Positions 1 to 64,000 are shown, counted from the stretch's first letter. The stretch is 64,000 bases of DNA from an uncultured virus (IMG/VR IMGVR_UViG_3300034684_000231) (IMGVR_UViG_3300034684_000231); one strand, 5' to 3'. The notes: a model not told the origin generated them from the sequence alone. A program made the numbers and translations.

Positions 1-70
1 TTGGATTTGTAATTCCTTCGTGTAACTATCTATATCCACCTATTGTAGTACCAAGTTTAAGTTCGGCCAT
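1..70 (-). CDS. 5' start of a tail fibre/hinge-connector-like protein (runs off the left edge)
   Basis: SD GGAGG then ATG at 70. Reads MAELKLGTTIGGYR*LHEGITNP, resembling the MAxLKxGTTIGG..xxHxG N-terminus of phage fibre proteins. Confidence 0.55.
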
Positions 71-87
71 GTATTACACCTCCTGGC

Positions 88-3000
88 TCATATCCATAGG
101 TTTATAACCTATTTACCTTTATACTCTGTATTGTACGGTGCCCCATCTTCATAAAGTATTTGTTGCCCGCGACCAAATGCCTAGTATGGAGATCTGTATG
201 ACAACGGCCAAATTTTTGAGCCCATTGCTTGAAGTTGATTTGTTAAGTCTGTGTTTGTATTAACAGCGTCGTACGATGTAAGCTACCAGTATTGCGTTCT
301 TTCTATCCCAGCAAGCTACGTTGCTAAATTAGTTCTCTATGCATTGTCAGCATATACATCGTATGTTGTGTCTGATAAAACATTAAACGAATTATCAAAA
401 ATCGTTAATCGTAAACCTCTACCCCCGGTATTGTAAATTTCAGTATCATTAATCTTAAGTATTCTATTACCACTCGTTCTGTTTTCTGGATAAGTTGAAT
501 CAAACTATGTACCCACCAAATAAATTTTGGTAAATTTACTATCCTCTTTAAACATTCTTGTGTGAACTCCTAGCGGAAAGATTCTAAATGGGCTAACATT
601 AGAATCAGAAACTTTTTCTATCTGTAAATCGTTTATATACAGTCTTGTACCATATTCGTCTGTGTCTGTATAAGTATATCCTATCTTGAATTCGCGCATA
701 CAATAGTATGTAACACCATCCGTGCCTGTTTGATACATGTAACCTTTTGGAATAGTAAATATCTATTCGTAATACTGCCAACCGTCTATGTCGTCGAATG
801 TATGTGTTATATAAGGCAAAAATAAGCCTGATAATCCTACTCCATTAGATACCCAGCCAACAGAATACTAAAAGTATATTTCAATCGTGTGTTGTGAATA
901 ACCTTTGTAATAAAAGCTTAAGCGATATGTCTATCCTTCTTCCCATATTTTGTCATCTGGAAAGATGAGCCTTAATCCACCCCAGTTCCAATTCGGACTG
1001 TTTAAAACATTAGGCTATCTTTTAACCATATAAGAATATGGCAAATGTCTAAAAGGACGCGGCACAAGCATTACTTTACAATTTGTTTGTTCATATTTAT
1101 TCCATATTCCTCCGAATTGTCCTGTAATAAACTATGACTCACCGTATCTGTCCAAGAGATTATCCCTTTCTTTTGCAATGTTAATTTTCTACCAGCCTTT
1201 GTTGTCTATGCTGAAAGTTCTTGGAATATATTTTGGTGCTTCTGAAGCATCTATAAATTTACTATACACATGCAATTCGCTAATTTTCTAGTTTTGCTAA
1301 TCTGTACCTTGATTCAAAAAACCGAGTCTCTAATAATCGAAGCCTTTGTCAAAATTGAAATCAGATGGTAAATCTTGAGAATATACCATTAAATCTTCGT
1401 GTGTAGTAAGATCGCGAATATATGCACTGATCTTCTTTGTTTTTGTACTAATAGATGCGAGAATAAATAGTTTATGCCCTATTCTGTCATTGATTCCATT
1501 AACGCTACTTTCATATGAATAATCTCTTGTGCTATCAATAACATTAAATAGTATTGTATTCTATGAAGACCAGCCATTTCCTCTGTAGATACCGAACCAG
1601 TCTTTTGTATGCCCGCTTGTCCACCAGTTTAATGTAAATATCTATGGATATGAACCATACGTATTGTCTGAAAGCGGTTCGTAAATAAATGATACCGTGA
1701 ATTCATCTTTAAAATTGTTGAATATATCAACAGGCAATTCTAGATAACTGACTCCTGCTGAACCATCTACATAGCTTAGAAGTTGATCGGTGTTATAGAT
1801 CTATACTGCCTAAATGTCGGCTTTTGTGTTTCCTACCTAGTATAAATGTCTTCCTCCTCCGGATCCATTAAATTTGCCTACCTACCATATCCATTCGCCA
1901 AGCTTCTTTCCGTGCTGTTGATAGTAAGATTCGTTTATGTAAAGTCTATTAGATGAATTTAAATCACCAAATTGAATTTCTCCGTAGTGAAGCCTGAGTA
2001 GAACTCCGTATACTATATTGCCTGATGTATTTCCTATGTTGCCACTAAACCATCCGCCCCAACCGTTCTTGTTTGTAGAATATGTAATGTTATCAAAGTA
2101 CTATGTAGCACCGCCAGAACCTCCAAATACTCTCAAGCCAACTCCGCCAGAAGAATAAGTCGCATCAGTATGCGATGCCACGAGCGTGTCGTTTATATAC
2201 TATTCATGAGATCCATTCGAATATACGACTTTTAATTTTACAGTTTGTCCCTAAGTATACGAAGTTGATGCAGATGCAAGCTGTGTCCACGAACCACTGT
2301 CTGCTGTGTTGCTTCCCTTACCCATTACAAGAGTACCGTTTCCTACTCCTACATAATATCCATATGTATCGTTTACGTCGTCAAACTATGTGGTCATATA
2401 TACAAAACCAGCATTTCCATCGCTTGGAATAGTAACATATGCTTCTATATAACCATAGCTGTTGCTTGGAATACTTTTTAATACAACCAACTAATGAGTA
2501 TTCTAAGAAGCGGTTAACTTAATCTTGTCATTTTCAATAGTTTGAGTACCACAAACTTTATATAGGTATCCAAAGTTATTATCTTTATTTAATGTTGTGT
2601 ATTTGTATGTTTGAATTCTTTGTGCCTTTGTAAGACCAGTAACAGGAATAGTACCATCATATATAATTTCAGTACTCCAATTACCAGAGCCAAACCTTTC
2701 TTCAAAATTGTTGCTAAAGCCACATACATTGCCGGTATAACCTATATCATAACTTTGCATGTTAGATGTAGAAATTTGATTAGTAACAGCGCCTTCAAAA
2801 GAAATCGAGTCATTGAATAATCTTAAATTGTCGTAATTAAACGCTGTAGAAATGCCTTGATAAATCTTTTTGCCTATTCCAACATAAAGCTATGGCTATG
2901 TGCCCCAGACATATTGTCCTGTGTTTGCCCATGTCCACTGAAAGCCAAAATAAAAATTATTGCGATATGCAGTATTTGTAATCTTTGTGCGATCTATTTT

Positions 3001-3514: not shown

Positions 3515-5839
3515 TTATGCAAAGATAAAATCTATAGATTGATTAGTGCTATTATAAATAATATTGAAATTATTAAGTGTAAGACTGCCATTTATAGTCA
3601 CATCATTAGCTGTAATCATATTGTTGACTGTAATGCTTTTTGTAAATGTAATATTGCCATTAACAGTGTTGTCTATGTCACTTCTAACAAATTGTGTTGA
3701 ATCTAAATTGTCTAATTTATCAGAATTGCCTGCGCTAGAGGCATAACTAACCGAAGCGTTTGCAATATCTGTAATTGTGGATATTGTATGTGTGTGAGAA
3801 TCGTTCTAAACAGTTGTGCTGATTGTAATATCAGATGAACCATCAAAACTTGCTGAACCGCTTACGCTACCAGATAAAGCAATTGTTCTCTAAGTTTCAA
3901 GTTTACTCTATGTATATGCATTTCCATTTAAAGCACCGTTAAATATATTCTATGTTACAGCGCCATCAATTAGTGCGTTGCCGGCAACGTGTAATTTTTC
4001 AGAAGGCAAAGTAGTGCCAATGCCTACATTACCGTCGTTTCCTATTACATATAGCTAATTTTTGCCTATATTAGTTGCACCACCTCTGTATTGTATGAAT
4101 AACGTGTTTGCAGTTCCATCAGAATTGTACAAGTTGATTTCGTTATTATATTCAAATCTTGTATATTGTGAGGTTCCACCGTTCCATATTTGGACCGTTC
4201 CATTTACAACTAAATCGTTTGAGATACCAGCAGAACCATTTACATCAAGTTTGTATAATGGCATTGTTGTGCCAATGCCAATATTTCCATTGTCGTCTAT
4301 GAATAACAATGATATAGATTTGTTATGTTTTGTAATGCGAAAGTAATTAGCTGAATTATTATTAGAATCTATATCTAAAGTTATTGAACCTTGTGAGCTA
4401 ATTGTAAAATCAACATTAGCATTAGATTCAATATTTGAAGAAGAACCATTGAATGAAACTAAACCTGTAAATGATGTTCCTGATCTAAGGGCAAAATCAC
4501 TCGAATCATATCCATCTAGCTTATCTGAATTATTTGAAAATAAAACAAAAGCATTAGAAATGTCTGTAATTTCAGAAATAGTATGTGTATGACCATTAAG
4601 AGAAAACTATGTTGCCGGAAGTCCATTTAATGTCTGAGCATCAAAACGAAGCTATGTGATAAGAAAATTCCTCTATGAGTATATTGGGGTATTGTTGTAC
4701 ATACTAATAATAGTGTCGTTGCCAAGCAAAGAACCGTTGAAAGAAAGAACTGAAACAAAACCGTTTAATAATTTATCTATTGCTCCGTTGTTATATCCAT
4801 GCCCGACATATACTTTTTGGAATGTGGTGCTGTTGTAATCTAACGTAGTCTAAATTTGTGTGTCTAACACCTATGTATCGTTGATAAATAATTTGGCATT
4901 TATGTTGTTGGCATCTATTCTGCTGTATCCTAACTAGAAGAAAGTCCAACCGTCTGGATCATATGATAAAGTCTGTGCAGTGTGAACAACAGTATTTAAA
5001 TTATCACGTATGGTGACTTTCAATCCAGTGTAGTTATTTATAGTCTCTAATGTAATACTGTTCTATTCACTCGGTTTACCAATTGATATTACTACCTAAT
5101 CATTTTGCCTTTTTGTAGGTGGAACATAGAAATATCCGTAAACAGTTAATGATTCGTGGTATCCTATTGTCGAGATAATCTTCCCATCTGGTCTGGTGCT
5201 TGCAGTGAAAGATGTCCATGTGCTACCTTCTTCTAATTGTAAATACTGAAGGTATAACTGCTACTTTTTTGTTGCGTCAACTGTAAATGCGATTTCAAAT
5301 TCCACTTTCTAAGCATTGGATGGAGTAGTAAATGAAGCATAATATAATTTGCCATCTTCAAGTTTAGCTTGGAGAGCTTCAGTTATACTTAATGCTGTCC
5401 AATTTACAAGTGTTGTATCCTATGCATCCAATATTTTATACTTAATGGTTATTGAACCATATTGAGTAATATCTGCAACAAAGGATAGCGTGTATGTTGT
5501 GTTTTCCTATATATTTACTGCGTTGGTAGTAACAACCGCAGATGTGTTTGAAGTACCAGAAAGTTTGTTTTCAATGTAAATGTTAAAACCTGGTTTGAAT
5601 CCCTTTGTAATCCAATACTGCGATTTGTATATGTCTATTGAATTGTTGAAAGAAACTGAAGGCAAGAACAGATCTGGAATATTATCTCCATTGTCATCGC
5701 GGGACAAAAGAGCGAGAGAACCAAACAAGTTTGTTGTTCCTTTTTCAATTAGTTGTGAATATTTCTAACCTACAAATGGTAGTGGAGATGTGTACTGAGT
5801 ATATATTTGATCTGCATTAACTATTAAAGTTGGTATCAA
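3515..5839 (-). CDS. Tail fibre protein, ~774 aa
   Basis: Probable TTG start after GGGGTG. Fragments 5507-5728 and 4055-4309 are in frame, with TAA at 3515-3517. Fibre motifs: two GN(I/V)GIGTT repeats, NGNAYT*SKLET*RTIALSGSVSGSASFDGS, two HTHTIS.ITDI...NSDKLD repeats, and LQLEEG. Confidence 0.8.
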
Positions 5840-5890
5840 TATGATCACACCCCTTGTTGATAAGATATGCAGTTTCTATTAAATAATTAA

Positions 5891-6189: not shown

Positions 6190-7818
6190 TTATTTATTTT
6201 CTTTAGGAACTATTAATGTGAGCTATTGTGGCGGTAAAGTTCCTTTCTTTTGATACGGTTGTTGATGCTAATTGTTTCTGTGTTTAATATATGCTTGATG
6301 ATTCATTGCCACTTCTTGGTACATGTCTAATAAGATGTGTATTCCCTAATCTAACAGTTGTCTTTTTAAATCGTCTTTATCTTTTGCCGGAATATCTTTC
6401 ATCACTTCGTCAACACCTTTGAAATAGTAACTCCCTTGATTACACATGCATTTTTCAAACATATTTCCATTCATTCCTTGATAGTATTTTTTAATTGGTC
6501 TTCTATCGTTAGAATAGATAATATTGTGTCTGTTGTAATCGAATAGGCCATATTGTTTGAATAAGTCTATAATTCTTCGAGCTGCACTATATAATGTATG
6601 ATTCATTTTACAACTTTTTTCGTTTTTTGCATCTATTTTTCCTGCGTTGTCATAGTTAGAAGCATAACAGGAACCTTTGCAGTAGTATTTTAATTTGCAG
6701 TATTTACAATGTTCTAAATTGTTGACGTCCCAATCTCTTAATTTAGAAAGCAATTCTTCGTTGTGTATGCCTTCCCATACATTGCCTAACCATCCGTAGC
6801 GTTTTTCAAAATGAATTTTATATGGATCTAAACCGTGTTTATTAAATCTATGGCATACAAATATTTGTCCTTCTACGCTTACACCAAAATACGTGGAGCC
6901 GGCACCACATGGCTTTGGCAAATGCATACCTCTGGACAAAGTATGAAGTTTAGGATCATAACTTCCTGTTTTTTCAATTTCATCTAAATTGATTCCTTGT
7001 CTTTCTGCTTCTAAGATGTAATAGATCATATCATCTACAAATTTGTTTTGTATTGCAGGAAAACCGTTTTTGTAGTTAATTATCATTCTCTCATACAATG
7101 CTACTAATTGTTCTTCAAGTTCTTTGAAATGATCATTAGTCCAATTTGCCTCAAATACTGGTGAGAAGAAATATGACACAATTCCTTTTCCAAGTACATA
7201 TTCATAGCTTTTGATAATGTTTGGTATATAGTCTGGATGTAAAGACATTCTCAATTGCGGAGCATAACCATATACCTTCTTGTAAAGATCTATGTTTTTG
7301 TCGATAATGTCGAAGCTCCCTTTTCCATTTGGCAGAACTCTTTGTGCATCGTGATTTTCTTTTATGCCGTCCATAGATATAAGCCACGTGATATTGCGTT
7401 CTGCACACCAGCGAAGCCTTTCTTCTGTAAATTCTACAGCATTGGTAGTGCCGCCTATATGTCTAATTTTTTTGCCAGTTTCTTTTGATTTTTGCTCGAA
7501 GTATTCATATGTTTTTTTGATCATGTCAAAGTTATGAAATGGTTCGCCGCCCCATGGTTCAAATCCCAAACCGCCTTGCTTATTTACTTCTTCTACCGTT
7601 CCTGAGTTGCCGTCATCGAAAAGCCAATCAACAGCCTACATCATTACTTCTTCAGTAAGCTTTCTGTCCTCTCGTTTTTTGGCCTAAAAGTCAGCGAAGC
7701 AATACTTACATCTTAGACTGCACCCTTCTGTCATATCTAGACTGAGATTTAACGTTGATGCTCCTAATTCTTTAAGTTTCTTCCCCGGTTTGCCTAATAT
7801 AAATGGATATTCTAACAT
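6190..7818 (-). CDS. Radical SAM enzyme with C-terminal SPASM domain (anSME/ranthipeptide-maturase-like), ~542 aa
   Basis: SD GGAGG, ATG at 7818. The CSLRCKYC (CxxxCxxC) motif lies upstream of two TAGs, followed by WGGEP, TTN and ISMDG. SPASM motif CGAG...VCHRF...CKYCKLKYYCKGSC...C. Ends at TAA 6190-6192 after three further TAGs. Confidence 0.92.
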
Positions 7819-17876: not shown

Positions 17877-18090
17877 TAAATAGGTTGTGGCTGCTATTCT
17901 TGGTGTTTATTGGGATGAAGTTATAGATTAGCTATTATTTGAAAAATCTGTATATACGGGCATAGGGAGGATTGATCTAATATGGAAAAAAGGATAGCCA
18001 TCACTAAGAATTCAAACTTCGGAGAATTCCAAACAGAAGCTCCGCAATCGGTAGCTAGAGTATCGGTTGCCGGATATAATGCAACCATAA
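17800..18090 (+). CDS. HU/IHF-like histone-like DNA-binding protein (divergent), 96 aa
   Basis: SD GGAGG, ATG at 17800. Reads KQIVILDRVSRKLNLDK*VVAAILGVYWDEVID*LLFEKSVYTGIGRIDL, matching the HU helix-helix-beta pattern. Has 4 TAG and ends TAA at 18088-18090. Confidence 0.55.
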
Positions 18091-18653
18091 AACTCTTCGG
18101 TGAAATTCCAGAACCTGATGATCCGTCTATCCTTGAAATAGTCGATACATTGGAGTCTTAGCAGTTTGAAAATATTGATGTAGTTATCAATACATTTGGA
18201 GGAAGTTGGGATACAGCAATTATGCTTCACTCTATGCTTAGGGCTATGCAGGCAACTACTTTTGTCAAAACTGTGGGAATTTCATCTGTTTACTCAGCCG
18301 GAATTATCATTTTTATGGCAGGACAAGAAAGACTAGCTTCTTACTATACCGATTTCTTGATTCACGTTACAAGAATTGCTATGCCTTATGAATCGTCTAC
18401 AAATTCTATGAATTATCTTAACAAACATCTTGGCACAGTCAAAAGAGTTATTAAAGATCTTTTTAGTGATTATCTAACAGAAGAAGAGATGAGATTAGTA
18501 ATAGATGCAAGCAGCGATTTGTATCTTAGTGAAATGGAAGCGCTTGAACGTGGAATTGTAACTCATGCCGGCTTTATCTATCCACAAAACTATTTATTAG
18601 CCGATCTTATGCCTGTGCAATAGAACTAGGGGGGAGAAACACATGGAAAATAA
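17982..18653 (+). CDS. ClpP-like (S14) serine protease, ~223 aa
   Basis: SD GGAGG, ATG at 17982. Motifs VVINTFGGS, VYSAGIIIFMAGQER (catalytic Ser), FLIH (catalytic His) and YLSEMEALERGIV. TAA at 18651-18653. Confidence 0.8.
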
Positions 18654-18939
18654 ATTGGAAGAACTAAAACAGCAAATATAGGAATTAAAAGAACAGCTTG
18701 AATCACTTATAAAAGATTACAAAACATTTTCTACACTAACAAACGAAACTATTACAAACATCATGCAATTCTTTATGCAATATGCAGCGCTTATAGAAGG
18801 AATCTATTCAGCACTTATTAGAGAAGGCATAATAGAAAAGAGACTTATTGATGAACTCGCAGAACAAATATATAAAGAGTTTATAGACAACATTGTTAAT
18901 ACAGCTCAAAATAGAGCAAAAGGAATGACAAAAGACTGA
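18643..18939 (+). CDS. Hypothetical coiled-coil protein, 98 aa
   Basis: SD GGGGAG, MENKLEELKQQI*ELKEQLESLI..., TGA at 18937-18939. Confidence 0.7.
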
Positions 18940-18955
18940 GAATATACATCATAAC

Positions 18956-18979
18956 AAGGTGCCATGTTAGGCACCTTTT
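18956..18979 (+). terminator. Intrinsic terminator
   Basis: AAGGTGCC-ATGTTA-GGCACCTT followed by TT, after the TGA at 18939. Confidence 0.6.
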
Positions 18980-18995
18980 ATAAGAGGTGATATAG

Positions 18996-26620: not shown

Positions 26621-26842
26621 TTAGTCATTATCAATGTACGAGCGATATATCAGAATTCCGACAGCTTCATCGTAAGTTGGTCCTATAACTAAGATATCGA
26701 ATAATTCAGCATCCTTCTTTGAAGCTACTATATTACCATAGTAAGCTAACGGCACAACTTTTACATCGCCGTTAGCAATTTGTATCTTTGCTGTTTGTTT
26801 CTTCCAATCTATATCAAGCAGTTTTGCTTTATCCATAATCAT
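26621..26842 (-). CDS. Small protein, possible gpV/spike N-terminal OB-like domain, 73 aa
   Basis: Intact ORF with SD GGAGG. AKLLDIDWKKQTAKIQI pattern, positioned after the hub gene. Confidence 0.55.
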   Translation of the reverse strand: MIMDKAKLLDIDWKKQTAKIQIANGDVKVVPLAYYGNIVASKKDAELFDILVIGPTYDEAVGILIYRSYIDND

Positions 26843-40813: not shown

Positions 40814-40819
40814 TTATTA

Positions 40820-46800: not shown

Positions 46801-47176
46801 GATTGACATTAAGAAGTTCTTTTGAAGCATTGAAGAATTTGGTAAACCTAACAACAGCATCAGAGCCTGTGTATCTGTACTACTATGCCGCAATAAGATT
46901 TGATAAACTCTATGCAGATGCATTGCCTGTTCTTTTTGCGAATTCTTCAAGAAATGGAGATGTTAACTTTCTTCCTGTTGTTTCCAATACAGTACGCCCT
47001 ATCGCTTCGGATAGGCCTTTTAATGCTGGTTGTAAATACTTAGAAAATTTTACCTAAGCGAGCCCTGCTATGAATGTGGCAGCAAGAGATGGTGTGGTAA
47101 TATCTTTTACCTGCTCTTTGTGGAATTTTTCTACCTTTTCAAGTCGCTTTCGTTCTTTTTCGTTAAGTTCATCCAT
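40820..47176 (-). CDS. Tape-measure-like protein, ~2118 aa
   Basis: SD GGGGG, ATG at 47176, following the tail chaperones. Fragments 44537-44746, 43796-44080, 43049-43309, 41774-42109 and 41387-41602 share one frame. Ala/Gly-rich hydrophobic stretches, TGA at 40820-40822. Confidence 0.65.
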
Positions 47177-48245: not shown

Positions 48246-48710
48246 TTATAACTTAATAACAGGATTCTGAATACCAAAATTAGATACGTTAAGTATCAAT
48301 TCAAGCAATGTTGGGACAATGCCTGCTTTTAATGTATCTAATCTTTCTTTTGTAAGCTGTGGATATAATGTCGCTTTCAAGACTATTTGCTCACCGGCTT
48401 CTTCGCTATCCTGAGTCGAACTTACAACTTCTTTGTATTCAAATCTTGTAAGTGGCCTGTAAATATAGAATTCGTTTTCGTCAAAGAAATATACATATAT
48501 TTCTTCGTATTCTTCTTTTAACTTTTGAATCAATTCTTTAAGAGATGGGTCTTTTTCAAATAAAATCTCCTCTGCTGTTTTTCTTAGATTCTCCATTAAT
48601 TCTTCTGTATCAATCCATCCCCCGCTTGCGGAATCTTCTTGCTGAGTTTCTGTCTCCTATGCCTTTTCCTTTAATTCCTCTTCAGCTTTCTTTAAGAAAT
48701 CCATACTCAT
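48246..48710 (-). CDS. Tail assembly chaperone-like protein 1, 154 aa
   Basis: SD GGAGG, ATG at 48710, one TAG at codon 18. Contains YIYRPLTRFEYK...KATLYP...KAGIVPTL. Lies between the tubes and the tape measure. Confidence 0.65.
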
Positions 48711-49336
48711 GTTTTTGCGCCTCCTTTAGATAGATATTTCAAAATAGTATGGTGTTTTTTCATCTCTATATATGAATAATCAGCAAAGATAATGTCTTTT
48801 GCAACAAATGAATGAATGTATTGCGAAGGCAGTGATTCCTACTGCCAATTAGTTTCAAAACCGTATACAGTCACATCAGACAATATAATTGCAGACATAT
48901 GCTAAAACGTTTTCTCATTCATTAAAATAACAATCAAACTGTTGATAACTACGCCGGTTTTATTCGGTTTAGCTATATATATCATTGGATCAGACAATAC
49001 ATCAATTAATGTCTTTGCCGTCTAGTTTAAACCTATTTTCCCCTCAATCGCTTTTGTAGAAACTATATAAGAAGATTGCTCAGTTTTAAACACATCATGT
49101 ACAGGTATTAACTGCTGCGAAGGAGTAACGTTTAAGTATGTAGCGTTATCAAGATATACACTTGAATTAAGCACTTTTATCAAATCATCAATGGATGGTC
49201 TTGATTTAAATAGATGCTAAGAAGCATAAATAGACTAATCAAAGCCGTTGTAGAATGACTTTGACTATTGCTGACGGTATAAACTTAGTATGTACTCGTT
49301 AATAGTTAACGTTATTTCCCCGGGATCATATGCCAT
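48707..49336 (-). CDS. Tail-tube-like paralogue 6, 209 aa
   Basis: SD GGAGG, MAYDPGEI...FYNGFD*SIY...HSFVAKDI, TGA overlapping the next ATG. Confidence 0.55.
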
Positions 49337-49889
49337 TAGACATCGCCTCCGGATTTTTAATGGACACTTGTTCTGCAAAGAAACGTGATACAAAAACAAG
49401 CGGTTGCTAGTCAGCTATTATCGTAAACTATGGCATTGTCAAAAACAAATTACGAAGTTCTAAAAATGCTTTTAGTTGTGGCTTATTATATAATTTCTGA
49501 AGCAATTGTTCTTCTCTACTTGGACTAAATAGTTCAATTACACACCTTGGTAAGTAATAAATATGTTGATCGTCAACACGTTCCAACCCCAACGTGCCAA
49601 ATATATCAACTGCATTTGTAATGAACTATATTATGCCAGCATTTAGATTCTTTGTAGAACTGAAAAACACAGGTGATGTGTCCTAAATGTTAAACACGGG
49701 ATATTCAATTGATGTAGTTGCAAATTGTATTGCAAATATATTGTCCATGAAGATCAAATCTTCTGAAGGTGGGAAATGGTCCGTTCCTACAATATCAAAA
49801 TATACTTTTGAATTTATCCCATTTATAACTTGAAGCTGATTTGATTTTTGCTCTCCGTTAGTTGAAATGATTGGTTTCACTGATATCAA
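49326..49889 (-). CDS. Tail-tube-like paralogue 5, ~187 aa
   Basis: YPVFNI*DTSP...NAGII*F...SRFFAEQV, TGA at 49326-49328. Confidence 0.55.
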
Positions 49890-50569
49890 CCACCTTCATA
49901 GAGCTTTCTGATTACAAGATCTGTGAACTTTGTTCCGTATTTTGGATCTTCTATTTTTGTGATATCCAACAATAAAGACAAGTCTATGTTTAGCTTGCCA
50001 TTTTCCTGTGGAACTACAAGCAACTTTTGCCCTATGTAATTCTATACGAATCTATACAACATTAATTGTCCTTGCGGCGAAACAGCATTTAGATCTGCGG
50101 AAGTTTCTATAATCTTTACATCTTTAATCACATAGACAAACGTATTAACAACAGGATCATCTTTACTTAAATTTTCTGGAAGGCTTATTATAACAATATC
50201 AAAGAACGGTAAATCTTCTGCATTTGCAGTGATATATGGCAATGTGCTTTGTTTGTCGTCTGTTTCGCCTTTGTACTATTCTCTAATAACGTCAAACCAT
50301 GTTGTAAAAAGGTTAAATATAGAAGGAAAAGCGTTGGCTGGCACCTACATAGTGCCAGCGTATAATCTCTATCCGTATGTATATCCAAGCTATTCTTTTT
50401 GGCCGAGCTAAAGCACAGGCTTTGCATCAGCCGGTGTGGAGAAAGTAATCTGTGCTATATCATCAAGCAATTTGTATTCGATTAAAGTGGCACTCGTACC
50501 AATAGCCGGTACTTGTGCCACGCCGTAAATCCTAGCATTAGAAGGAGTGAAAAATCTATTTTGTGCCAT
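49886..50569 (-). CDS. Tail-tube-like paralogue 4, 227 aa
   Basis: MAQNRFFTPSNARI...KPVL*LGQKK*LGYTYG*RLYAGTM...DLPFFDIVI...YRFV*NYI. Confidence 0.7.
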
Positions 50570-50592
50570 TTATATCACCCGATTAGTATAAA

Positions 50593-51300
50593 TTATTCTT
50601 CTTTTTTCACCTTAATTACTTTGGTAACGCTTCTCTATAAGAAGTTAACTGCTTCAAATATTGCTTCGTTTCCGGCTTGAATTGCAAGATCGTTGTTCAA
50701 GAACTCGACACCATAAAGCGTAACTTCTTCGTATTTGATTTCTCCATTGTTAAATTCTAGTGGTGTAATTAGTTTTATGTCCGTTGGTGGAATTTCGTCT
50801 AAATACAATGGAGGTATTTTTAATGTTTCTGATAATGGCACGTTATTTCCATAGAATATTAAATCTTTTGCGATTTCAAAGTCTTCTTCTGATACTGTTT
50901 GTTCTTTACCAGTGATAGCTTGAACGTATGGTTTGACAAATTTTTCAATAAAGTTTGAAATATCGTATTCGTTTTTGCCTTGGAGTCTATATATTCCGTT
51001 TGCTGATTTTAAGTATTCTTCGCCCTATGCCCAGAAGTATGCCATCAATTTGTGGAAGAATGAATCTGCAAGAACTACGCCTTGCATTGATCCTGCTACA
51101 CTTCTTGCGCCTTTACCAATAGTAATTGGTTCTGCGCTTCCTATAACATAAATAGGTGCTTTTGCACGTCTTACTTGGTATGCAAAACTTTGAACATTAC
51201 CAAGTGTAACGTCTACTACTTCTGTTTTGTTATTAGCGTCATTTCTTTTAATCGATACTGTAATCAGCGTGTTCTATGGAGTACCTAAGAATTCGGCCAT
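50593..51300 (-). CDS. Tail-tube-like paralogue 3, 235 aa
   Basis: LGNVQSFAYQVRRAKAPIYVIGSAEPITIGKGARSVAGSM...YLDEIPPTDI...LYGVEF...NFL*RSV. Confidence 0.75.
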
Positions 51301-51323
51301 TATTTATCACTCCTTTATGAAAG

Positions 51324-51908
51324 TCATTCATTGGTTTCTATGTTCTTAACTTTTGTCCAAGGTGTGATTCTTTGTGCTACCCATTCTGCTCTTTGTGCAA
51401 GCGCAACGTCGTTTATTGTTGCAACTAACGAAGAGCTTGTAAATTCTAGTCCGTAAATTGCCATACCGCTGAATTGTCCATCTTCATCAACACCAAATAC
51501 TAGTATATCCAATGGTGGAAGCATATCAAGAGTGGTTGGCTTCATTTTTCTAAATTTAGCACCTTCTACATCATATTCTTTGTTTGCAGAATCGTTTGTA
51601 TCGTTATAAAGTGCATTTTCAATAGGATTCCATTTTTCAAATTCTTCGTCTGCAAGAATAATTTCTCCAACGTTTTCTAAACCTTCATTGATTTCAAGCA
51701 ATAGATCTTGATTTAAAATGACGTAGTCGATTATACCGGATATAATCCTAAAGCCTCTTCCATAGCCAAGAGGTTCTGTTCTACCCAATGCAAGGACAGG
51801 AAGTTTTCTTCTGTCAACGTTTACCATGAAGTTTGTCTAACTACCTATTACTTTTCCTGTATCTAACAAAGCTATTGCTACACTATTAGGAGAAAGTGGT
51901 GTTGCCAT
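51324..51908 (-). CDS. Tail-tube-like paralogue 2, 194 aa
   Basis: SD GGAGTG, ATG at 51908, single TAG at codon 24. Contains PVLALGRTEPLGYGRGFRIISG...LDMLPPLDI...IYGLEF...WVAQRI. Confidence 0.75.
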
Positions 51909-51935
51909 TATATGTCACTCCTTTCAAATCTTTTA

Positions 51936-52514
51936 TTATTCGTTAACGTCTTTGTATTTAGTTGTTGTTGGTGCAATTGAACGCGCCATGAAACTGACTC
52001 TTTCTAGCTATGCTACGTCATTAATTTGTTTTGCGTAACTGTAATCATAGAACTGAACATCATACAAGACTATTTCAAGGTATTCTAACTTTGCTTTACC
52101 GTCAATTTCTTTTGGTTGAGGATTCTATGAAATCAATATCAATTTGGAAAATTCTATATCATCGATATTGGAATCTATTGTGTAATATGCATTTACTGGC
52201 GTTCCATATATTTTTTGTTCTGACAATACCTCGCTTTCAACAAGATTTGATTCTACTTCTGTAATGTATCTTTTGTTTTGCATACTAAATTGATTTAAAA
52301 AGGTTTCGTTAAATATAACCATATCAATGGATCCGCTTATAAATCTCTAGCCACGTGCGTTTGCTCTTGGTAACGCACTTCCGAATGTAAATATTGGTAT
52401 TTTTCCTCTAGTGGTTTCAATAATGATATTAACCGCGTTCCCTATTACTTCATGAGTTCCATCTGGCAATTCCTATATCAGCAACTAGTTAGAAGGAGAA
52501 TATGTCAACGACAT
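51936..52514 (-). CDS. Tail-tube-like paralogue 1, 192 aa
   Basis: SD GGAGGTG. Reads MSLTYSPSN*LLI...IGNAVNI...PIFTFGSALPRANARG*RFISGSID...FMARSI. Confidence 0.75.
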
Positions 52515-52574: not shown

Positions 52575-54041
52575 TTATGCCAATGCGTATTCAAATTTAA
52601 CGCTGATGTTAATTACCTCGATTTCTGCAAATGCTCTGATTTGTGCTTTAACGTTAAGAGCATTGATTGCACCGCTTGCTACATCTGGTTCAACTGTTAC
52701 TGTACCGCCTGCAATTTTGCCAGCTTGTTTCATGCTGTTTGTAAAGTTTTGCATTGTTGATTGCATGCTCATTCTTACTGTTCCGCTGTTTGGTTTTCCT
52801 AAGAATTTATCAGCAATTTCTTTCAAGCCATTGATGTATTCGTTAATGACTAAGATGCTGGAAATTTTTGTTAATGGTGTTGCTCCGGCAGAAGCTGTTC
52901 TTCCAACTATAATCATTGGTTTCTTTTGATATCCTGGTTTGTTGTAGAGAGCTGTAATTCTTGCGCCTGCTAATTTGTTTGCTTGTTCTAAGGTAATTGA
53001 TTCTAACAATGTTACTCCATCAAGCGCAAAATTGATTGGCCCTGTGTAAATATTGGATTTGTGAATATATGCCGCTACAAAGGATGCCAAGTCAACAACA
53101 TCTGAAGATACATTGTTTACAGTTCCGTGTCCTGCAACAACAACCAATCTGTGGCCAAGATCATTTCCTGTGTCATCAAGAATTCCGTTTTTAAAATCGC
53201 CATTTTTCATTAAGTTTTCGAGGTTGTCAACCCATGTTTTAATTCCACTGAAGGTATAGCTTGCTGGTTCTTTTGTGCCTATGAATGCTAATACATTCTT
53301 AAATTGGTTACTTTGTTTTTCTGCAAATTTTGCAAGAACATTTGCAAAGTGAGTTGAAGTTCCTGCGTCGTCAAGTACCGCATCAATAGCATAAACATAA
53401 TCTACTTCTAAACCGAGCAATTCATTAAGAGCAGTTTCAAGAGCAGCTATTTTTTCATCGTCTGTTGTTGGTTCAACTGCATATTGGAACACAAAGTATG
53501 CATCTGCTGTTGAAGGTGTTCCACTTATTGTTAATCCATATGCACTTAAATCTGATACTTCTACATCGTTAACATAAACTTTTCCATCTAATTGTGATAC
53601 TTTTATTACAAAATTTTCTTTCCATGTTGGCTCACCAGTCCAAGAAATGGTTACGCCGTCTAAGGTTACACTGCCATCTGCTGTAGCTGGAGCTAATGAG
53701 GTTTTTGCTGAATCTACATCTGTACCTGCACCTGCTTTTATATCTACCTTACCTACTCTTACTACTACAGGAATAACATCCCATTCTGTAGTTTCTCCAA
53801 CTATTTTTGCGTGAAGTCCTAATTTTTCTGTGGTACCAAACATATCAGAAAGCATTGTGCTATTTACAATGAAGTATGGTTCGTTAAATTTGATAGGTGT
53901 TCCGTCTGCAAACTAATCGTTTGGATACCAACCAAGTAACAAGAACTTTGGTTTAGAATCATCATATACTGGTGTTTGAGTTTCAACAGAAATGCTTGAT
54001 ACTACTCCTGGAAGATTTGGATAAATCCTTAATTCTGCCAT
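52575..54041 (-). CDS. Contractile tail sheath protein, 488 aa
   Basis: SD AAGGAGG, ATG at 54041 (MAELRIYPNLPGV), one TAG at codon 43. The C-terminal sheath domain reads FLGKPNSGTVR...IRAFAEIEVINISV. Confidence 0.85.
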
Positions 54042-56280: not shown

Positions 56281-57486
56281 TTATACAGTGATTGTGCTTA
56301 CTGCGAGAGGATCAAATGTTTCGACAACTTTGACATCTTTTATGACTCCGATTGCAGATCCGTCGAATTTTGGAGCCATACCGTATCTTTCTCTAATCTT
56401 GAAGCGTTTAATGTCTCTTGCAGGATCATTGAACTCTTCTGTTGTTGGCCTTTCTGCTGTGATTAAGTATCCGAGATTTTCGCTGTCTACAACTATAATG
56501 TCTGTTAATTTGTTGTTTTTGTCGTATCTTGCTGCTGGTGAAAGTATTAATCTGAGTGGTTTTCCAATTATACCAGTTGGAAGTTCAAAGCTTACAATAT
56601 TTCTTCCGTTGAGATCTGCTGTTTTACCCATTACTTCGTAAATTGATGGCTGTCCGCCTTTTGTTGTTGGCCAATTGAATAGTGATCCTTTTTCTCCCAT
56701 TGATCTGAAGAAGAAGCTTCTTAATGTTCCGTTCTTTGCAAAGATTGGATATGCAAGTGGGTGCATGATTATGGTGTCAACATTGAATCCTTTGTCCATG
56801 AATTGAACTGCAACATCTATAATGTCATCTAATGAAAGTCCTTGGTTTGGATTTCCGCTGATGTCAACACCAGAACCGCCGTTCTTGAGTGTCTTTGCGC
56901 TTTCGTAGAACATTTTGACAGCTTTTCTTTCTTTCCATCTTGCCAATGCTTTTAATGCTTCTTTTATTGCTGCATTGAAGATGTCAAATCTTGAATATTT
57001 GATTGCTTCCTCTGTCAATGATACAGCTATACCTGATTTTCCAATTGTGACTGTTGCAACAGCTCCTCCAGCGACTTTCAATTTTATTTCTGGGTATTCG
57101 CCAGCTTCTCCTACATCTAGGCTTTGTCCAAATGCACCAACGAATTGTGGAACGTGAATTGTCAATGATGGTCCTGGATCTACTTCGATTTCTTCAAGTA
57201 ATGATGTGATAACAAGTTGGTTTTCAAATACATCTGTTGCCATCTTTGTAATAACTTTTGGGAAAAAGTAACCGAATTCTGGTGATGTGATTAAGTCTTC
57301 CATAGAATATTTTTTGGAAGCTATTTTGTTGATTTTTCCGTGATTTTCTATAAGTCTTTTGTAGAGTTCAACTTTCTAATCTTCCTCTGCAACCTTCTTT
57401 AACTATTTAACTACATCAGAGTCTCCAACTATGATTTCTTGTATCTTCTCTTCTACTATTTCGTTGATGTAATCTTTGAATTCCAT
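56281..57486 (-). CDS. Major capsid protein (HK97 fold), 401 aa
   Basis: SD GGAGGG, ATG at 57486 (MEFKDYINEI), TAG at codons 28 and 37, in frame with ORF 56281-57303. Motifs VGEAGEYPE, IGKSGIAVSLTEEAI, IIMHP and KIRERYG. Confidence 0.9.
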
Positions 57487-58379: not shown

Positions 58380-59696
58380 TTATTTTTTAAAACCGAGAAC
58401 TTGATCAATTAAATCTAATGTGCTGTCAACTAAGTTTGTAGTTATAGGATTCATTTCTTTTTGTAAATTAACTTCATCTTTGTGTTCGAATTCAACATTT
58501 TCGTCATTTGCTTCTTCTTCGATTTTTTCTTCCTTTTCTTCGTCTTCTTTTACCTCTTCTTTTAGTTCTTCTTCAACTGCTGGTTCTTCTGTTTTGTCTT
58601 CTCCTTCTTCTTTGCATTCTTCGCATTCTGCATCCTCTTTTTCAATTAACAATGAATCAACTAATGCTTTATACTCTTTTTCAAGCGTCTTTAATGTGTC
58701 AATTGAATAGTCTTTGATTCCTTCTTTAATTTTTTCTACTGCTTCTGCATCTTCAATACCAAGAATAATTGCTTTTAATCCTGCTACTCTGTCAATTAAG
58801 TCTTCTTTTAAAACGCCTAAAAGTTTATCGTGTGCTTCTTTTAACGCATCGTATTCTGCAACTTTCTTGTTATATGCATCTTCAAGTTCTTTGTACTTGC
58901 TTTCAAGTTCAGTATATGCGTCTTGTAATTTCTTGAGTTCTTCCATATCAGAGCCCTCCTTATCTGAATTAACATTAACATCACTATCGGTCATTGTTGA
59001 ATTAACATCTTTATCTTGTCCGAATGGTTCGTTTTTGATTTCTTTGAGAGCTTCGTCTAAAGAAGTGACTTCTAACCTTGCTATTCCTGCATATGAATCT
59101 GCTGGTGTGTTTACAAAACTAATTTCTCTGTATTGAATTCCCAGTGGAACGTCGTATGCAATTACTCCGTCATATTCATGTCCTGTTTCATGAGGACAGA
59201 AGTCAATTTCCTCGTCTGGTTCATCGAAAATCCCAGGTTTTGGTTTGCCACATATGTTACATACAAGCGCGTCTGCAAAAAAGCCAACACTGACTGTTGT
59301 GTAATTACCGGCCATGACTTTCTTTATAGCTTCTTCATCTGTCACGTATGCTTTGAGAAGAATGCCTCCAGAGGCTTCAGCGGGCAGTTGAATCTTTTTG
59401 CCTGTTAAGGCTTTCACTTTTGCGTCCCATTCCTGTCTGTCAATGTAGTAGGCTTCAACTACTCTACCAATTGCATCAGTGTAATTGTCATGATGTCTAA
59501 GCACAGGTTTTTGGAAAGGATGTGTCCAAGTGGCAACAGCTTTTTTTATTTCTTCTTTCTTGTAAATTCTCATGTTAATAGGCATATCGCTATGTGTGGC
59601 AACAATCCAAAGCTTTAACTAAGATGGTGTTTCCTAATCTTTAAATGTTTTGTCTACTTGAAGCTGAGTGTAAACAAAATATTCCTTTTGCTGCAT
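58380..59696 (-). CDS. Prohead protease fused to an acidic coiled-coil scaffold, 438 aa
   Basis: SD AGGAGG, ATG at 59696, TAG at codons 21 and 26. Motifs PVLRHHD...AIGRV, YTTVSVGF, CNICG...CPH and REISFVNTPAD. E/K-rich C-terminus. Confidence 0.85.
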
Positions 59697-59739: not shown

Positions 59740-61194
59740 TTAACTATTTTTAGTGTGTTGATTTTGAGGATTTACTTTATTTTCTGTTTCTGCTGAATTC
59801 TCCGGTTCGGTATTTATTAAACCTGGCTTTGCTTCCGCTTGCCATTCTACCTGTGGCTTTTTAACGTGGTAAATGTACATGTCTTCTTCATCCACTTCTG
59901 TGTGCATACCTAATTGTTCTCTCATTTCAGAGAATGTGATCGCACTATGTTCATACAAGTAAACAGCTTGGTTTTGTAGTTTAACTAATGTGTCTACATC
60001 AGGATCGTTAAATATAAGTTTCGGCATTTTATCGCCAAGAGTCTTAGGATTGTATCCCATATCAATAACTATATGTTCCAACACTTCATGTTGGAATTGC
60101 TATGCAAACAATTTTTGAAATTCTTTTGCTTTAAGGAGAGCAAAGTTAACGGAGGTTTCAGCAGTAGCACGGTTGGCCTAACCTGCTTCGCCCATCATAA
60201 CGGAAGAAAGACCAAGAGCACCGTAAACTCTGTGCCTAATCTTGTCGTAGAAAACTAGAATATCTTGGAGAACATTGTTAGCGCGCGTTTCTATATCATG
60301 GTTGTGAGGAGCAACTATTGTGTCATATGGCTCCATGCCTTCTAACATTTTCTTTGTTTGAATCAATTCATCTTTGGAACGTGCCGGCATTTTATCGTTT
60401 CCAACTTTATAAATAGAATACATTACTTTACCTTTCTCAATAATGTGTTCAATTATACGTTCAATCTTTCTGAGAATTAACAAATCATCTATTGCTTCAA
60501 AATAGAATGGTCTTCCAAAACCTGTAAGTATATCTTCGTCGTATTTAAAGTGCGCAACTTCATATCTATAAAACTTGCGTGAAGTGGTTGTTCCGAAAAT
60601 ATCGCCGATAAAAAAATTGAGTTCGGGATCATGCGCAAAAAAGCTGTATTGTCTTTGTAATAGCGATAAATCTTGTTTGTAAGCAACAGTTTCTCCAAAT
60701 GTATTCCTTTGAATAGCCATTATTATTGGATGTGTTACAAAGATACCAGAAATTGGATCTAAGTTCTTGCCGTTGTATACGTATGATTTTCCAGAAACAG
60801 CATTTTTGCTTCGAGAGAAAACTAACATTGCATTACCAAATGCAATAAAATGTTTCATAGCATTGCGTACAATTTCGTACATAGTAAGATTGGAGTTGAA
60901 TTCTATTTCACTTAGCCTTTTCTTTAACTTCTTATTAATTTCTGTATCTGAAGACATAATGTAAAAGCCGTTGTTAATACAAAGCTCTGTATACATCTAA
61001 ACGGTTTGCTTCAGAATACTATCAGCTCGATAAATTCTGTAAGCATCAATAAGACCAGTATTTGCTTCATATTGTCCTTCGGGTGTTTTTGTTCCCTACT
61101 ATACCTGTTTCTTTTCTTTTATTAGATTTGATTTGCTCGCTGCATCCTACATAATTGGCTCTTCTTTCTTCTTAAACCAGTCAAAGAAGCCCAT
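59740..61194 (-). CDS. Portal protein, 484 aa
   Basis: SD GGAGG, MGFFDWFKKK. Fragments 60178-60996 and 59740-60084 are in frame. Motifs FGNAMLV, VAHFKY...GFGRP, ANRATAE and AITFSEMREQLG. Confidence 0.85.
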
Positions 61195-61196
61195 AT

Positions 61197-63338
61197 TTAT
61201 TCCTCCTTGCTAAATAGTTTTTCTAATATATCAAACATTGCGCTTAATGGCTCACGTAAGAATTCCGGAAGACTGTTAAGCTATTCTTTTTCATCTTTAT
61301 TCAAAGTCATTGAAAGACTAGACGTATTTATTATACATTTTTTGTATTTTTCTATTACGTTTGTATTTACTATGTATTTGTAGAATACATCAAGCAATTT
61401 CTTAATTCCATCTATGTATCCTTTTAAGTTTAAACGCGGTTTTTGTAAATCCAATTCAAACATAAGTTCTTCAAACATCTTATCTATTTTATCCATTTGA
61501 GAAAACATAGACATAAACAATGGTTTGATGAGTTCTTTAACTATCTATGCAACAATGTATGTCCAGATGGTAGGATCTAAAAACATTGCACCTTGCATTG
61601 TCATTGTATATAATGTACCGCAAGTTTGTTTTAGCTTTTTCTGTTTAATAACTGGAGTTTCTACTGCGTATTTAAGTAAGTAATATACATAATAATCGGC
61701 TGTTGATGGTTCTAAAGATGGGTTCTCTCCGTATGTATTCTTGATATAATTTGCCAATGCTTGTCTATATTTTTCACCTAAATAAGCAATTTGCTGCATT
61801 AACAATCCCATGAATATAACTGTTGAATCGTGTAGTAATAAAGAAGCTAAGTGTTTGTTTTTGCCTTGTAGAATTTTTGGTCCGTATTTTGTTATTGCTT
61901 TAGTCATTGCCGAGAGATCAGAATTTAGTGCGCCCTAAAACAATTCTTTTATTAAAAGGAATGATTCACCAACTCCGGTCGAATCCATGAGCAATTCGTT
62001 TGCTATTTTTGTAATTAACTTATCTACATCAGGCATTTTTCCAGTTTCCACCATTTCTTGCTTAGCAGATATTAGAGTTTCCTATACAGCAGCAGCGGAT
62101 TCTGCAATCTTTTTAAATGGTCTTGGTAATTTTGGTTTGTTCTTTAATAGCGCAGATACAAAGCTTTTGTATGGCTACACAAAAGGAGAAGTAGTATTTT
62201 CAATATTCAGTTCTTTGCTTGCAAATCTTTCAAATAGCGAACTTAATATTTGAGATTCATCGATGAATTTGTTGACATCAAACAACGACATTAATGCCTC
62301 TTTAGAATATGTATCTCCGTAAAAAGCTGTGAATATATACATGAATTTGTGCAAATCTTTTATGTATTCTTTTAAGTATTCATTAGCTTCTAATCCTTCG
62401 TTTATATTGTCTGCGATAGTATCAACTCCGTGGAGTATTAAACCTAAAATTGATACCATAATATAGGCAAATAACATTTGAACTAATCCTTCAAGCACAG
62501 CACTCATTGGATCTGGGTTCTTTGTAATATTCCTAAAGAAATCCCCGGTTGCGTTCCATAAAACGTACATATTAGCATATGTGGCTTCTAAAACATCTAA
62601 TGTCGTGACTGTATCATCAAGAAATTTATAAATTGACTCTTTGTTGTCCTTTAACATTTTAATCAGAGGAAGATTGTTATATTGACTTGTCCACGTATTG
62701 ATTGTAGTTTCTACATAATCTTCAAATCGTTTATAACTTTCTTCGTTGGAATAATTATTAAAGATTTGAGAATAGTAATTCTTGTATGCAGTAATGTAAA
62801 AGCCCCAAAAAGAAATATATTTAATTAAACAACAAGACGGATTTGAGAATATTACATCTAACAACGCATCAGCGGTTTTGTCTAAATTGTTAGCTAACCT
62901 TTTCAGGCCTTCTTGTACCGCATTTTGTGCATCTGTTTTTAATTTGTTTACTACTGAATTTTCATTATCTGCAGATGTTGTTGATTTTTGTTGTGCTTCC
63001 GGACTAATAATTTCATATTTAGATATAGTATCTGTAAGTTCATTCACTAATACAACTTTGTCTTCGGTGTAATGAACTGCATATGCAAGATCTATAACAG
63101 AGCTTAAAGTGTTTTTGTGCTCTGACTCTAAAGACAACATCTAGTTATTTGCGCTGTTGATAATGTATCCTACAGCATTTAATACCTCTGGATATGCATA
63201 CTACACGTGAGGATCCATTATATCTGAAAATGCACTATATTTTGCAAACATGGATTGTCCACTGTTAATATAGAAAACTTTCTATTTGCCTTGCTTTTTA
63301 GCGATTTCTAAACATTGTTTAATGTCTCTTGAGGCCAT
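61197..63338 (-). CDS. Hypothetical helical protein, 713 aa
   Basis: SD GGCGGTGA, ATG at 63338. Fragments 62175-63140, 61545-61907 and 61281-61520 join via TAG. TAA at 61197-61199 abuts the portal SD. Confidence 0.7.
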
Positions 63339-63350
63339 TTAATCACCGCC

Positions 63351-64000
63351 TTATTTAAGAATGTTGCCAAGTGTTCGTTTGATGTCTGTTTCAGAATAAT
63401 ATTTTCTGCCATATCTGTTATATCCAAGCTATACAACAGCAAGCATCTTACGTTGTGTAATTGACAATTTGTTACTTGATACAGTCTTTTTGCCACTCAT
63501 TACTTGATCAAGAAAATAAGGAGTTGAATCTGTTCCTAGTGTTAGGCCCTTTGGAATCCTAAAGAATGAACACATTAATTCATATTCCCTTACAGCAAAG
63601 AACCATACTATATGTTCCCATACTGTAATGAGTGGTATCCACTTGAATGGATACCAACTAAAGTTAAATCCCCAAAACGAAAAACTAAATCCTATATTCC
63701 TAATTTTGCCTAATATCCAGTTCATAATTTGTTCAAACGGCAATATAGTCCATGAACCAAAGATCCTAATGATATCAAGTTTTGCTTCAAAGTTCATTAA
63801 TAATTTCCAAAATAATATTTGGAACCAATCAACATTGAATACACAATCTAGAGATGGAGCTTCAACCGGCTTTACATTTGCAAGTTTTACGCCGGTTGAC
63901 TTTTCCTATACGCGAATCTATTTTAATCCTTGTTTAACGCTCTTAGTATTTCCAGCATGTCTAGTTATATCTTTTTTAAATTGTCTAAATGTACCGTTAT
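63351..64000 (-). CDS. 3' part of a hypothetical protein with an aromatic/hydrophobic segment
   Basis: Frame open (TAG only) from the right edge through ORF 63429-63797 to TAA at 63351-63353. Confidence 0.65.

Follow-up and report, generated by a model that had tools for sequence, protein, structure and literature searches.

An uncultured tailed phage, represented by the IMG/VR record IMGVR_UViG_3300034684_000231, was confirmed to use TAG as an ordinary sense codon, and the comparisons presented here support alanine as the residue for which this codon stands. In the stretch of 64,000 nucleotides that was analysed (hereafter the window; guanine plus cytosine (GC) content of 33-37%), reading through TAG raised the number of open reading frames (ORFs) of at least 150 amino acids (aa) from 15 to 37, with the longest reaching 2449 aa, and left the window almost fully coding. 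Our curated gene set, in which every gene terminates in TAA or TGA, holds 463 in-frame TAGs across 36 window genes. An automatic, non-overlapping set of 37 ORFs likewise contained 443 TAGs among 19,818 codons (2.24%) and ended in TAA (25 ORFs) or TGA (12 ORFs) and never in TAG. With in-frame TAGs in conserved genes and termination by the other two stop codons, the phage thus belongs with the stop-codon-recoded phages. Our favoured reading, to which we assign a probability of roughly 0.8, is that UAG is a sense codon mainly or only for alanine in this phage and its whole clade, most likely by means of a phage CUA tRNA derived from tRNA-Ala.

That UAG appeared to be reassigned to alanine had been proposed in an initial annotation made from the window alone, which relied on TAG codons at alanine positions of recognisable motifs. 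All 15 coordinates cited there (50635, 50042, 50408, 51837, 52485, 10067, 3908, 3890, 56135, 25631, 2890, 1801, 25082, 49683 and 51274) indeed carry an in-frame minus-strand TAG in the peptide context given, and five further motifs (X marking TAG) could be located as well: VIDXLL at 17920-17937 (plus strand), FIAGLAXVK at 47048-47074, IGAAVXTLGVADXII at 43586-43630, VVKXLKK at 57394-57414 and PNDXFADG at 53901-53924. The annotation had also used six tail-tube paralogues as an internal alignment. In a MAFFT alignment of the six copies the columns FMARS/WVAQR/FLXRS, PVLALG/PVLXLG, IGNAVN/IGSXTN and KGARS/RGXRF/YGXRL were recovered, but FVXNY did not align cleanly. The broader claim was supported, since alanine came first in the exchange with recoded relatives, in invariant alignment columns, against standard-code relatives and in summed profile scores.

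Partners of TAG in recoded and standard-code relatives

Public protein predictions for this clade were made with genetic code table 15 (TAG = Gln) and therefore contain an assumed Q, so that the DNA of relatives was needed. This is illustrated by the eight sheath homologues in a large protein collection, in which the seven residues at the sheath TAG column were Q, A, K, Q, Q, Q and S. One of these public proteins (P0005) corresponds to the sheath ORF of a metagenome locus (L007) with all three TAGs written as Q, and the four Q among seven residues were rejected as circular evidence for glutamine. Both P0001 and P0005 are public clade proteins with Q at TAG sites.

Scanning metagenome contigs with a sheath alignment yielded 13 loci (L001-L013) of 1.4-21.5 kb with a sheath identity of 54-71%, all of which are TAG-recoded, with TAG accounting for 1.3-4.2% of the codons in long ORFs. 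ORFs were translated with TAG as X and aligned by BLASTP without composition correction, comparing window minus-strand ORFs of at least 120 aa with plus-strand ORFs of the loci and keeping the reciprocal best per locus. After retaining 116 of 243 high-scoring segment pairs, each site was counted once per lineage, for six lineages. These comparisons cover window positions 40.8-64 kb.

At 127 sites, window TAGs paired with TAG 106 times, followed by Ala (44), Ser (24), Thr (17), Gln (13), Asn (12), Gly (12) and Val (10). In the opposite direction, the TAGs of the relatives faced the same 106 conserved TAGs and the window residues Ala (114), Ser (56), Thr (36), Lys (26), Val (26) and Gln (23). 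The share of TAG partners was by far the highest for Ala (7.2%), followed by Ser (3.5%) and Gln (2.8%), with most residues at about 1%. Because the commonest partner codon of TAG was GCA, which differs from it at all three bases, mutational proximity does not account for the pairing of TAG with alanine. When the alternatives were scored with a matrix measured on the same alignments (n = 667), Ala gave the best log-likelihood (lnL), with Ser at -143.8, Thr at -206.1 and Gln at -331.8 relative to it. As a control, each sense codon was treated as unknown with its own data left out, and 59 of 60 codons were recovered; ATG was the sole miss, because it has no synonymous codon to learn from. Moreover, TAG paired with either Ala or TAG in 42.0% of cases, versus 49.3% for GCN codons.

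Multiple alignments of 12 families provided 220 columns with TAG and at least two sense residues. In 32 of these the sense residues all agreed, and the agreed residue was Ala in 16, Ser in 6, Pro and Lys in 2 each, and one of six other residues (including Gln) in 1 each. Alanine occupies 46 of the 907 invariant columns without TAG (5%), which makes the excess at TAG columns highly significant (binomial p = 5e-13). Alanine was the top sense partner in all six lineages and in 13 of the 18 genes with at least eight pairs. Counts of TAG and Ala also traded off between orthologues (r = -0.69, slope -0.69, 63 pairs), which was not the case for Gln or Ser; this compensation was given little weight, as drifting composition (Asn and Asp correlate too) and a few long pairs act as confounders. 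Taken together, the alignments show TAG to be evolutionarily interchangeable with alanine codons.

No relatives were found in sheath-based scans of viral contigs and of species genomes, nor in a scan of species genomes based on the major capsid protein (MCP). Scanning viral contigs with the MCP and the portal returned three short recoded fragments (L017, L021 and L040), the remaining matches being standard-code relatives. Two of these fragments (L021 and L040; GC of 30%) are much more distant and also TAG-recoded, which indicates that the code is old within the clade. The proteins of L021 are 26-35% identical to those of the window, and its TAGs pair with window Ala (6), Ile (4) and others (1-2 each). 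The next relatives outward from these two fragments use the standard code.

The window is the virion module, together with neighbouring genes, of a divergent myovirus with an architecture of the 0305phi8-36 type. The gene order is that of the annotated maps of Bacillus phage 0305phi8-36, KLEB27-3 and Moorella phage MTATph1, in which the sheath is followed by several tube paralogues, the tail chaperones, three giant proteins and the baseplate. The window shares with these phages an unusual layout, with six tube paralogues one after another and three adjacent proteins that each exceed 2100 aa. Identity to the window is 22-29% for the sheath, MCP, portal and tube proteins of this group (26-27% for the sheath by tblastn against the three phages). 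The group differs in its standard code (0.98-0.99 of bases in standard ORFs), and the clade of the window has diverged far from it. Together with five viral contigs detected via the capsid protein (G001-G005; MCP identity of 23-34%), these three phages formed a set of eight standard-code relatives, about 25% identical to the window proteins.

Against this set, 67 window TAG sites gave 159 aligned residues (cells), namely Ala 24, Leu 16, Asp 16, Thr 12, Ser 10 and Gln 4. The alanine share of 15.1% contrasts with a background of 7.5% (p = 9e-4), and Ala again had the best lnL (Thr -9.8, Ser -19.4, Gln -24.1); an earlier pass with three phages had given Ala in 18 of 86 cells. Self-match rates in the same alignments put these figures in perspective. 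TAG met Ser in 6.3% of cells versus 28.8% for Ser itself, Thr in 7.5% versus 24.3%, and Gln in 2.5% versus 14.0%, while the alanine value of 15.1% compares with 27.9%, so that among the four candidates only Ala comes near its own self-match rate. That TAG reaches about half of this rate would mean that TAG sites seem to lie at the less constrained alanines. A majority call per site among these relatives was possible at only 10 sites and was uninformative.

The profile check that the initial annotation had suggested, in which a dominance of Gln or Ser was to count against alanine, pointed the same way. Thirteen proteins were translated with TAG as A, Q, S or L, and the bit scores of the top PHROG family of each were summed, giving totals of 709.3 for A, 689.9 for S, 688.0 for Q and 680.3 for L. 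The best residue was A for 8 of the 13 proteins, L for 3, Q for 1 (a tube paralogue) and S for 1 (the portal).

Ala-type CUA tRNAs in unrelated recoded phages

Viral contigs were further scanned with a structural tRNA pattern (G1-G4, U8, a YU-CUA-R loop, a GTTCRANNC T-loop and C69-U70-C71-C72-A73), which yielded 9 loci, or 13 in a relaxed form. A CUA tRNA with G3:U70 and A73 was present in six of them, that is L054 and L056 (near-identical loci, on records G008 and G009), L057 (G007), L061 (G006), L089 and L092, and on the TAG-recoded viral records the acceptor set of this tRNA reads G1-G2-G3:U70-C71-C72-A73. Four other matches (L053, L055, L060 and L090) turned out to be tRNA-Arg(UCU) and were set aside. 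Furthermore, tRNA-like genes with Ala-type acceptor ends occur at L058/L059 10000-10075 and at L091 1857-1928, for which ARAGORN reports a four-base anticodon UCUA; these may be quadruplet-reading or oddly looped suppressors.

In both G007 and G006 the CUA tRNA lies close to a normal tRNA-Ala(UGC), at a distance of 7 and about 170 bases, respectively. It folds as a canonical cloverleaf for G006 and G008, and the lowest-energy fold of that of G007 is not a cloverleaf. Both phages carry the CUA tRNA amid other tRNAs and alternate TAG-free with TAG-rich genes, with 689 in-frame TAGs in G007 (116 kb, complete) and 408 in G006 (135 kb). The region around the CUA tRNA of G006 (L061 9753-10442) combines tRNA-Ala(UGC), the Ala-type tRNA(CUA) and a transfer-messenger RNA gene (tag ANEYIPLAA) within 700 bases. 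IMG/VR classes G006 as a provirus, and there are TAG-free stretches at both of its ends.

The twelve relatives of G007, from five lineages, are essentially standard-code. Their residues at 86 TAG sites of G007 (270 cells) were Ala in 83 (30.7%), Ser in 27 and Gln in 17, the alanine share approaching the 34.4% with which the Ala codons of G007 itself match Ala, and the lnL relative to Ala was -86 for Ser and -128 for Gln. Two otherwise standard-looking G007 relatives (L085 and L086) hold 13 in-frame TAGs, which align to Gln (6) and Lys (3) of G007; TAG may therefore stand for Gln in one sister lineage of this group and for Ala in another. For G006 the other tRNA-bearing loci offered no usable homology, and T4-type terminases were used instead. 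The terminase of G006 contains 22 TAGs, at which four standard-code terminases supply 86 cells, 29 of them Ala (background 5.7%) and none Gln, and all four invariant TAG columns are Ala. In two independent phages, an Ala-type CUA tRNA is thus linked to a proteome in which TAG behaves as Ala.

Neither an alanyl-tRNA synthetase (AlaRS) nor a release factor is encoded in any of G006-G009, so that the host AlaRS would have to charge the CUA tRNA. Given the co-occurrence of a tRNA(CUA) and Ala-aligned TAGs in G006 and G007, this mechanism is also what we infer for the clade of the window, which would have an Ala-type CUA tRNA charged by a host enzyme. In the proposed mechanism, a phage-encoded tRNA derived from tRNA-Ala would have acquired the anticodon CUA while keeping the acceptor-stem identity set (G3:U70 and A73). 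It would be charged by the host AlaRS, which does not read the anticodon, and would compete with release factor 1 (RF1) at UAG.

Codon usage and features of the window

Most window proteins are without a Pfam family, and the Pfam and PHROG matches comprise a capsid protein, portal, ClpP-like protease, baseplate wedge, tail-fibre repeats, radical SAM enzyme and an Ig-like domain. The main features are given below, with TAG share denoting TAG as a fraction of TAG+GCN codons.

1..64000: whole window, a virion-gene module with TAG as sense codon; its 463 TAGs are 29.6% of TAG+GCN codons.
52575..54041, minus strand: tail sheath of 488 aa with a single TAG at residue 43 (TAG share 0.02); the probe that brought the 13 recoded relatives.
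48707..52514, minus strand: six tail-tube paralogues with TAG/Ala exchanges between copies, at 51936-52514, 51324-51908, 50593-51300, 49886-50569, 49326-49889 and 48707-49336.
56281..57486, minus strand: MCP (Pfam Phage_capsid_4) with 2 TAGs, at both of which relatives have Ala; Ala in 11 of the 15 TAG/sense pairs of the family.
57526-58344: gene without TAG (TAG share 0%).
58380..59696, minus strand: prohead protease/scaffold-like protein with 2 TAGs (TAG share 0.06); Ala in 13 of 36 TAG/sense pairs.
59740..61194, minus strand: portal protein (phrog_9232) with 6 TAGs; the TAG in its motif GEAGXANRATAE is kept as TAG in four lineages.
26839..47176, minus strand: three giant virion proteins of 2449, 2194 and 2118 aa with 66, 51 and 74 TAGs, parts of which match gp145/gp147-type proteins of 0305phi8-36, MTATph1 and KLEB27-3.
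24617..25807, minus strand: J-like baseplate wedge with 9 TAGs; phrog_6 bit scores of 66.1 (A), 61.4 (Q), 64.0 (S) and 61.7 (L).
3515..5848, minus strand: tail fibre protein, with the TAGs at 3908 and 3890 in its C-terminal fibre repeat; phrog_11011 bit scores of 53.6 (A), 45.7 (Q), 45.9 (S) and 43.0 (L), the largest gain among the profiles and in line with the alanine that had been proposed for this repeat.
6190..7818, minus strand: radical SAM enzyme with a Cys-rich C-terminal region and 5 TAGs; phrog_1802 bit scores of 94.3 (A), 92.9 (Q), 92.3 (S) and 91.9 (L).
17982..22404, plus strand: ClpP-like protease and three unknowns with 3, 6, 8 and 14 TAGs, where TAG is a sense codon too; these genes lie beyond the part covered by the relatives' DNA.

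TAG is unevenly distributed over these genes, with a share of 2% in the sheath, 7% in one tube paralogue, 7% in the capsid protein and 6% in the protease/scaffold protein, versus 29.6% overall. UAG would thus supply about 30% of the alanine positions in the virion genes while being avoided in the sheath, capsid and main tube, and its scarcity in abundant virion proteins fits a codon that is decoded less efficiently than GCN. Counting TAG as alanine raises this residue from 5.4% to 7.6% of all residues. The base following TAG shows a mild bias (C in 22% versus 13% for all codons, G in 22% versus 29%), from which no conclusion was drawn.

Two neighbourhoods in the window deserve separate mention. 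The radical SAM enzyme lies directly downstream of a 624-aa tail-module protein (7843-9717, minus strand), the C-terminal 450 residues of which consist of dense CxC/CxxxC repeats, and this pairing hints at enzyme-made cross-links in a virion protein. Furthermore, a putative HU-like ORF of 96 aa (17800-18090, plus strand) with four TAGs contains VIDXLL and runs, in a different frame, across the position annotated as the start of the ClpP-like gene (17982); one of the two starts is probably wrong.

Competing explanations and known codes

Alanine as the meaning of TAG is supported by four largely independent sequence-based tests and came first in every quantitative one. Several observations nevertheless weigh against it. 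The match with alanine is only partial for the distant standard-code relatives, at about half of the alanine self-match rate, and the evidence from within the clade covers the 40.8-64 kb part of the window. Serine is enriched throughout, accounts for the 6 of 32 invariant columns mentioned above, reaches 18% versus 21% for Ala in lineage B, and tops four small and poorly conserved genes of the 18, with Gly topping a fifth. In the portal motif GEAGXANRATAE the TAG column is Ser in the distant fragment L021, and the portal profile scores 86.3 bits with S versus 83.2 with A; the highest score is obtained with Leu for three other proteins and with Gln for one. In the ribonucleotide reductase of G007, none of the eight TAG columns is Ala in solved structures of this enzyme, which is weak evidence given eight sites at about 40% identity. 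The tRNA-bearing phages are moreover unrelated to the window, with no match to its MCP, sheath or other proteins. Finally, ARAGORN and an E-value scan with Rfam found no tRNA in the 64-kb window, and none was found in the relatives' loci L001-L013, L017 and L021, which amount to about 120 kb of virion-module fragments; published surveys report a suppressor tRNA in only 35-52% of recoded phages (10.1101/2021.08.26.457843, PMC11210395). An Rfam antisense_SR1 match in the window scored 29.4 bits, below its gathering score of 45, and was taken as chance.

The serine observations could indicate that TAG is ambiguous or read as serine, with the CUA tRNA being taken by both AlaRS and the seryl-tRNA synthetase (SerRS), or two suppressor tRNAs producing an Ala/Ser mix. 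The initial annotation had fairly left room for this. Serine is the second-best partner throughout, leads those few poorly conserved genes and gives the top portal score. Furthermore, UAG-to-Ser with a tRNA-Ser(CUA) in phages is reported in a survey cited by a review (PMC4695839), and G3:U70 allo-tRNAs with a CUA anticodon are described as inserting mainly Ala and Ser in Escherichia coli (PMC5389517). A pure serine code is at variance with the lnL deficits of 143.8 within the clade and 19.4 against standard-code relatives, and with the low TAG-to-Ser rate (6.3% versus 28.8% for Ser itself). Some serine enrichment is to be expected anyway, since Ser is the usual substitute of Ala and TCG is one mutation from TAG. 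Minor or ambiguous decoding as serine is thus a possibility that we consider unlikely.

A different origin of the alanine code has to be weighed as well, in which UAG already means Ala in an undescribed bacterial host lineage and the phage merely follows the code of its host, without needing a tRNA of its own. This would agree with the missing tRNA genes and with the recoding of the whole clade, including relatives that are only 26-35% identical, and phages sharing a variant code with their host are on record for codes 25 and 4 (10.1101/2021.08.26.457843, PMC11210395). On the other hand, according to a Codetta screen all known bacterial code changes reassign UGA (PMC8629427). The avoidance of TAG in highly expressed genes points to a suppressor in limited supply and not to a codon that is fully native, and G007 has its own CUA tRNA and standard-code relatives. 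We know of no bacterial UAG-to-Ala code. The fragments that were searched are virion modules, in which phage tRNA clusters are rarely located. Overall, a host-borne code appears quite improbable. Two of the standard-code relatives carry unrelated tRNAs, G001 one for Thr(UGU) and G002 one with the anticodon UCA. The latter (L027 1498-1574; 131 kb for the G002 record) would be opal-reading and is labelled SeC by ARAGORN, and the genes in the fetched region of G002 are not lengthened by reading TGA as sense.

A glutamine code (table 15) would match that of the crAss-like and Lak phages and of further recoded ones, and it is what public gene callers assume. It is reported to be the only experimentally validated phage TAG code (PMC9523058). 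The Q at TAG sites of public clade proteins stems from the assumption of the gene caller. The mild enrichment of Gln among TAG partners (2.8% versus about 1%) is expected from the single step between CAG and TAG. One tube paralogue has its best profile score with Q. Against glutamine stand the lnL of -331.8 within the clade and -24.1 against standard-code relatives, its single column among 32 and its 4 of 159 cells, a TAG-to-Gln rate of 2.5% versus 14.0% for Gln itself, and the Gln codons that already make up 3.8% of all codons. We regard a glutamine code as very improbable. Pyrrolysine, another non-standard residue or the lack of a fixed meaning can practically be dismissed: for archaea, a code that reads every TAG as pyrrolysine has been put forward (10.1101/2024.09.30.615893) and ARAGORN labels any CUA tRNA 'Pyl', but the partner spectrum of TAG is Ala-like (Ala far ahead, Ser and Thr next) instead of Lys-like or flat, and the CUA tRNAs of the other phages are standard cloverleaves with Ala identity elements.

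Reassignment to alanine has precedents outside phages. UAG-to-Ala mitochondria belong to some chlorophycean green algae, and the alanine code of the yeast codon CUG is commonly attributed to anticodon-independent recognition by AlaRS. A review lists UAG-to-Ala among the stop-to-sense changes of mitochondria only, next to phage UAG-to-Gln and UAG-to-Ser (PMC4695839). The algal case concerns a eukaryotic organelle, unlike a virus on a bacterial ribosome with RF1, and the origins are independent. The CUG codon of budding yeasts is likewise a natural reassignment to Ala (PMC8629427), but from sense to sense and in a eukaryotic nucleus, while the phage case goes from stop to sense. Also comparable are the engineered or natural G3:U70 amber suppressors (allo-tRNAs and tRNA-Ala(CUA)); fitted with a CUA anticodon, such tRNAs place Ala at UAG in E. 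coli as AlaRS ignores the anticodon (PMC5389517). The natural phage tRNAs of L054, L057, L061, L089 and L092 have the same design. The suppressors are laboratory constructs or orphan tRNAs without a known dependent genome, whereas the phage proteomes here depend on the reading. The table 15 phages (crAss-like, Lak, the Agate/Garnet/Topaz clades and phAss-1) resemble the window in using TAG as a sense codon across late and virion genes, in stopping at TAA and TGA, and in the model of suppression by a phage tRNA, a phage-borne tRNA(CUA) being seen in G006 and G007. They differ in the residue (Gln instead of Ala) and in charging, which in the window clade would proceed via acceptor-stem recognition by AlaRS and not via the glutaminyl-tRNA synthetase.

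Searches of the full-text literature, survey supplements lying outside them, turned up no phage or bacterium for which TAG-to-Ala had been reported. The main survey names only TAG-to-Gln and TGA-to-Trp in phages that differ from the host code (10.1101/2021.08.26.457843), and in annotation tools TAG recoding is treated as synonymous with table 15 (PMC11210395, PMC13037316). TAG-to-Ala would be new among the codes described so far in phages and bacteria. We consider it probable that UAG-to-alanine is a real and previously unrecognised phage code with independent origins in at least three lineages that are unrelated to each other (the clade of the window, G007 and G006), via CUA suppressors derived from tRNA-Ala and an anticodon-blind host AlaRS.

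If so, UAG would have a third meaning in phages beside Gln and the one cited report of Ser, and recoding would not be tied to one synthetase; any tRNA whose identity does not lie in the anticodon could become a suppressor, which applies to Ala and should hold equally for Ser and Leu. Callers that apply table 15 would write the wrong residue (Q) at 463 window positions, and current pipelines would silently mistranslate such phages, placing Gln at 1-4% of residues in database sequences, with consequences for structure prediction, the building of profiles and proteomic searches in all phages of this kind. The compact natural tRNA-Ala(CUA) genes, which apparently work with the host AlaRS, may be ready-made amber suppressors. 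With about 30% of its alanines as TAG in an AT-rich genome and abundant proteins avoiding the codon, this phage would offer a natural system for the spread and limits of codon reassignment.

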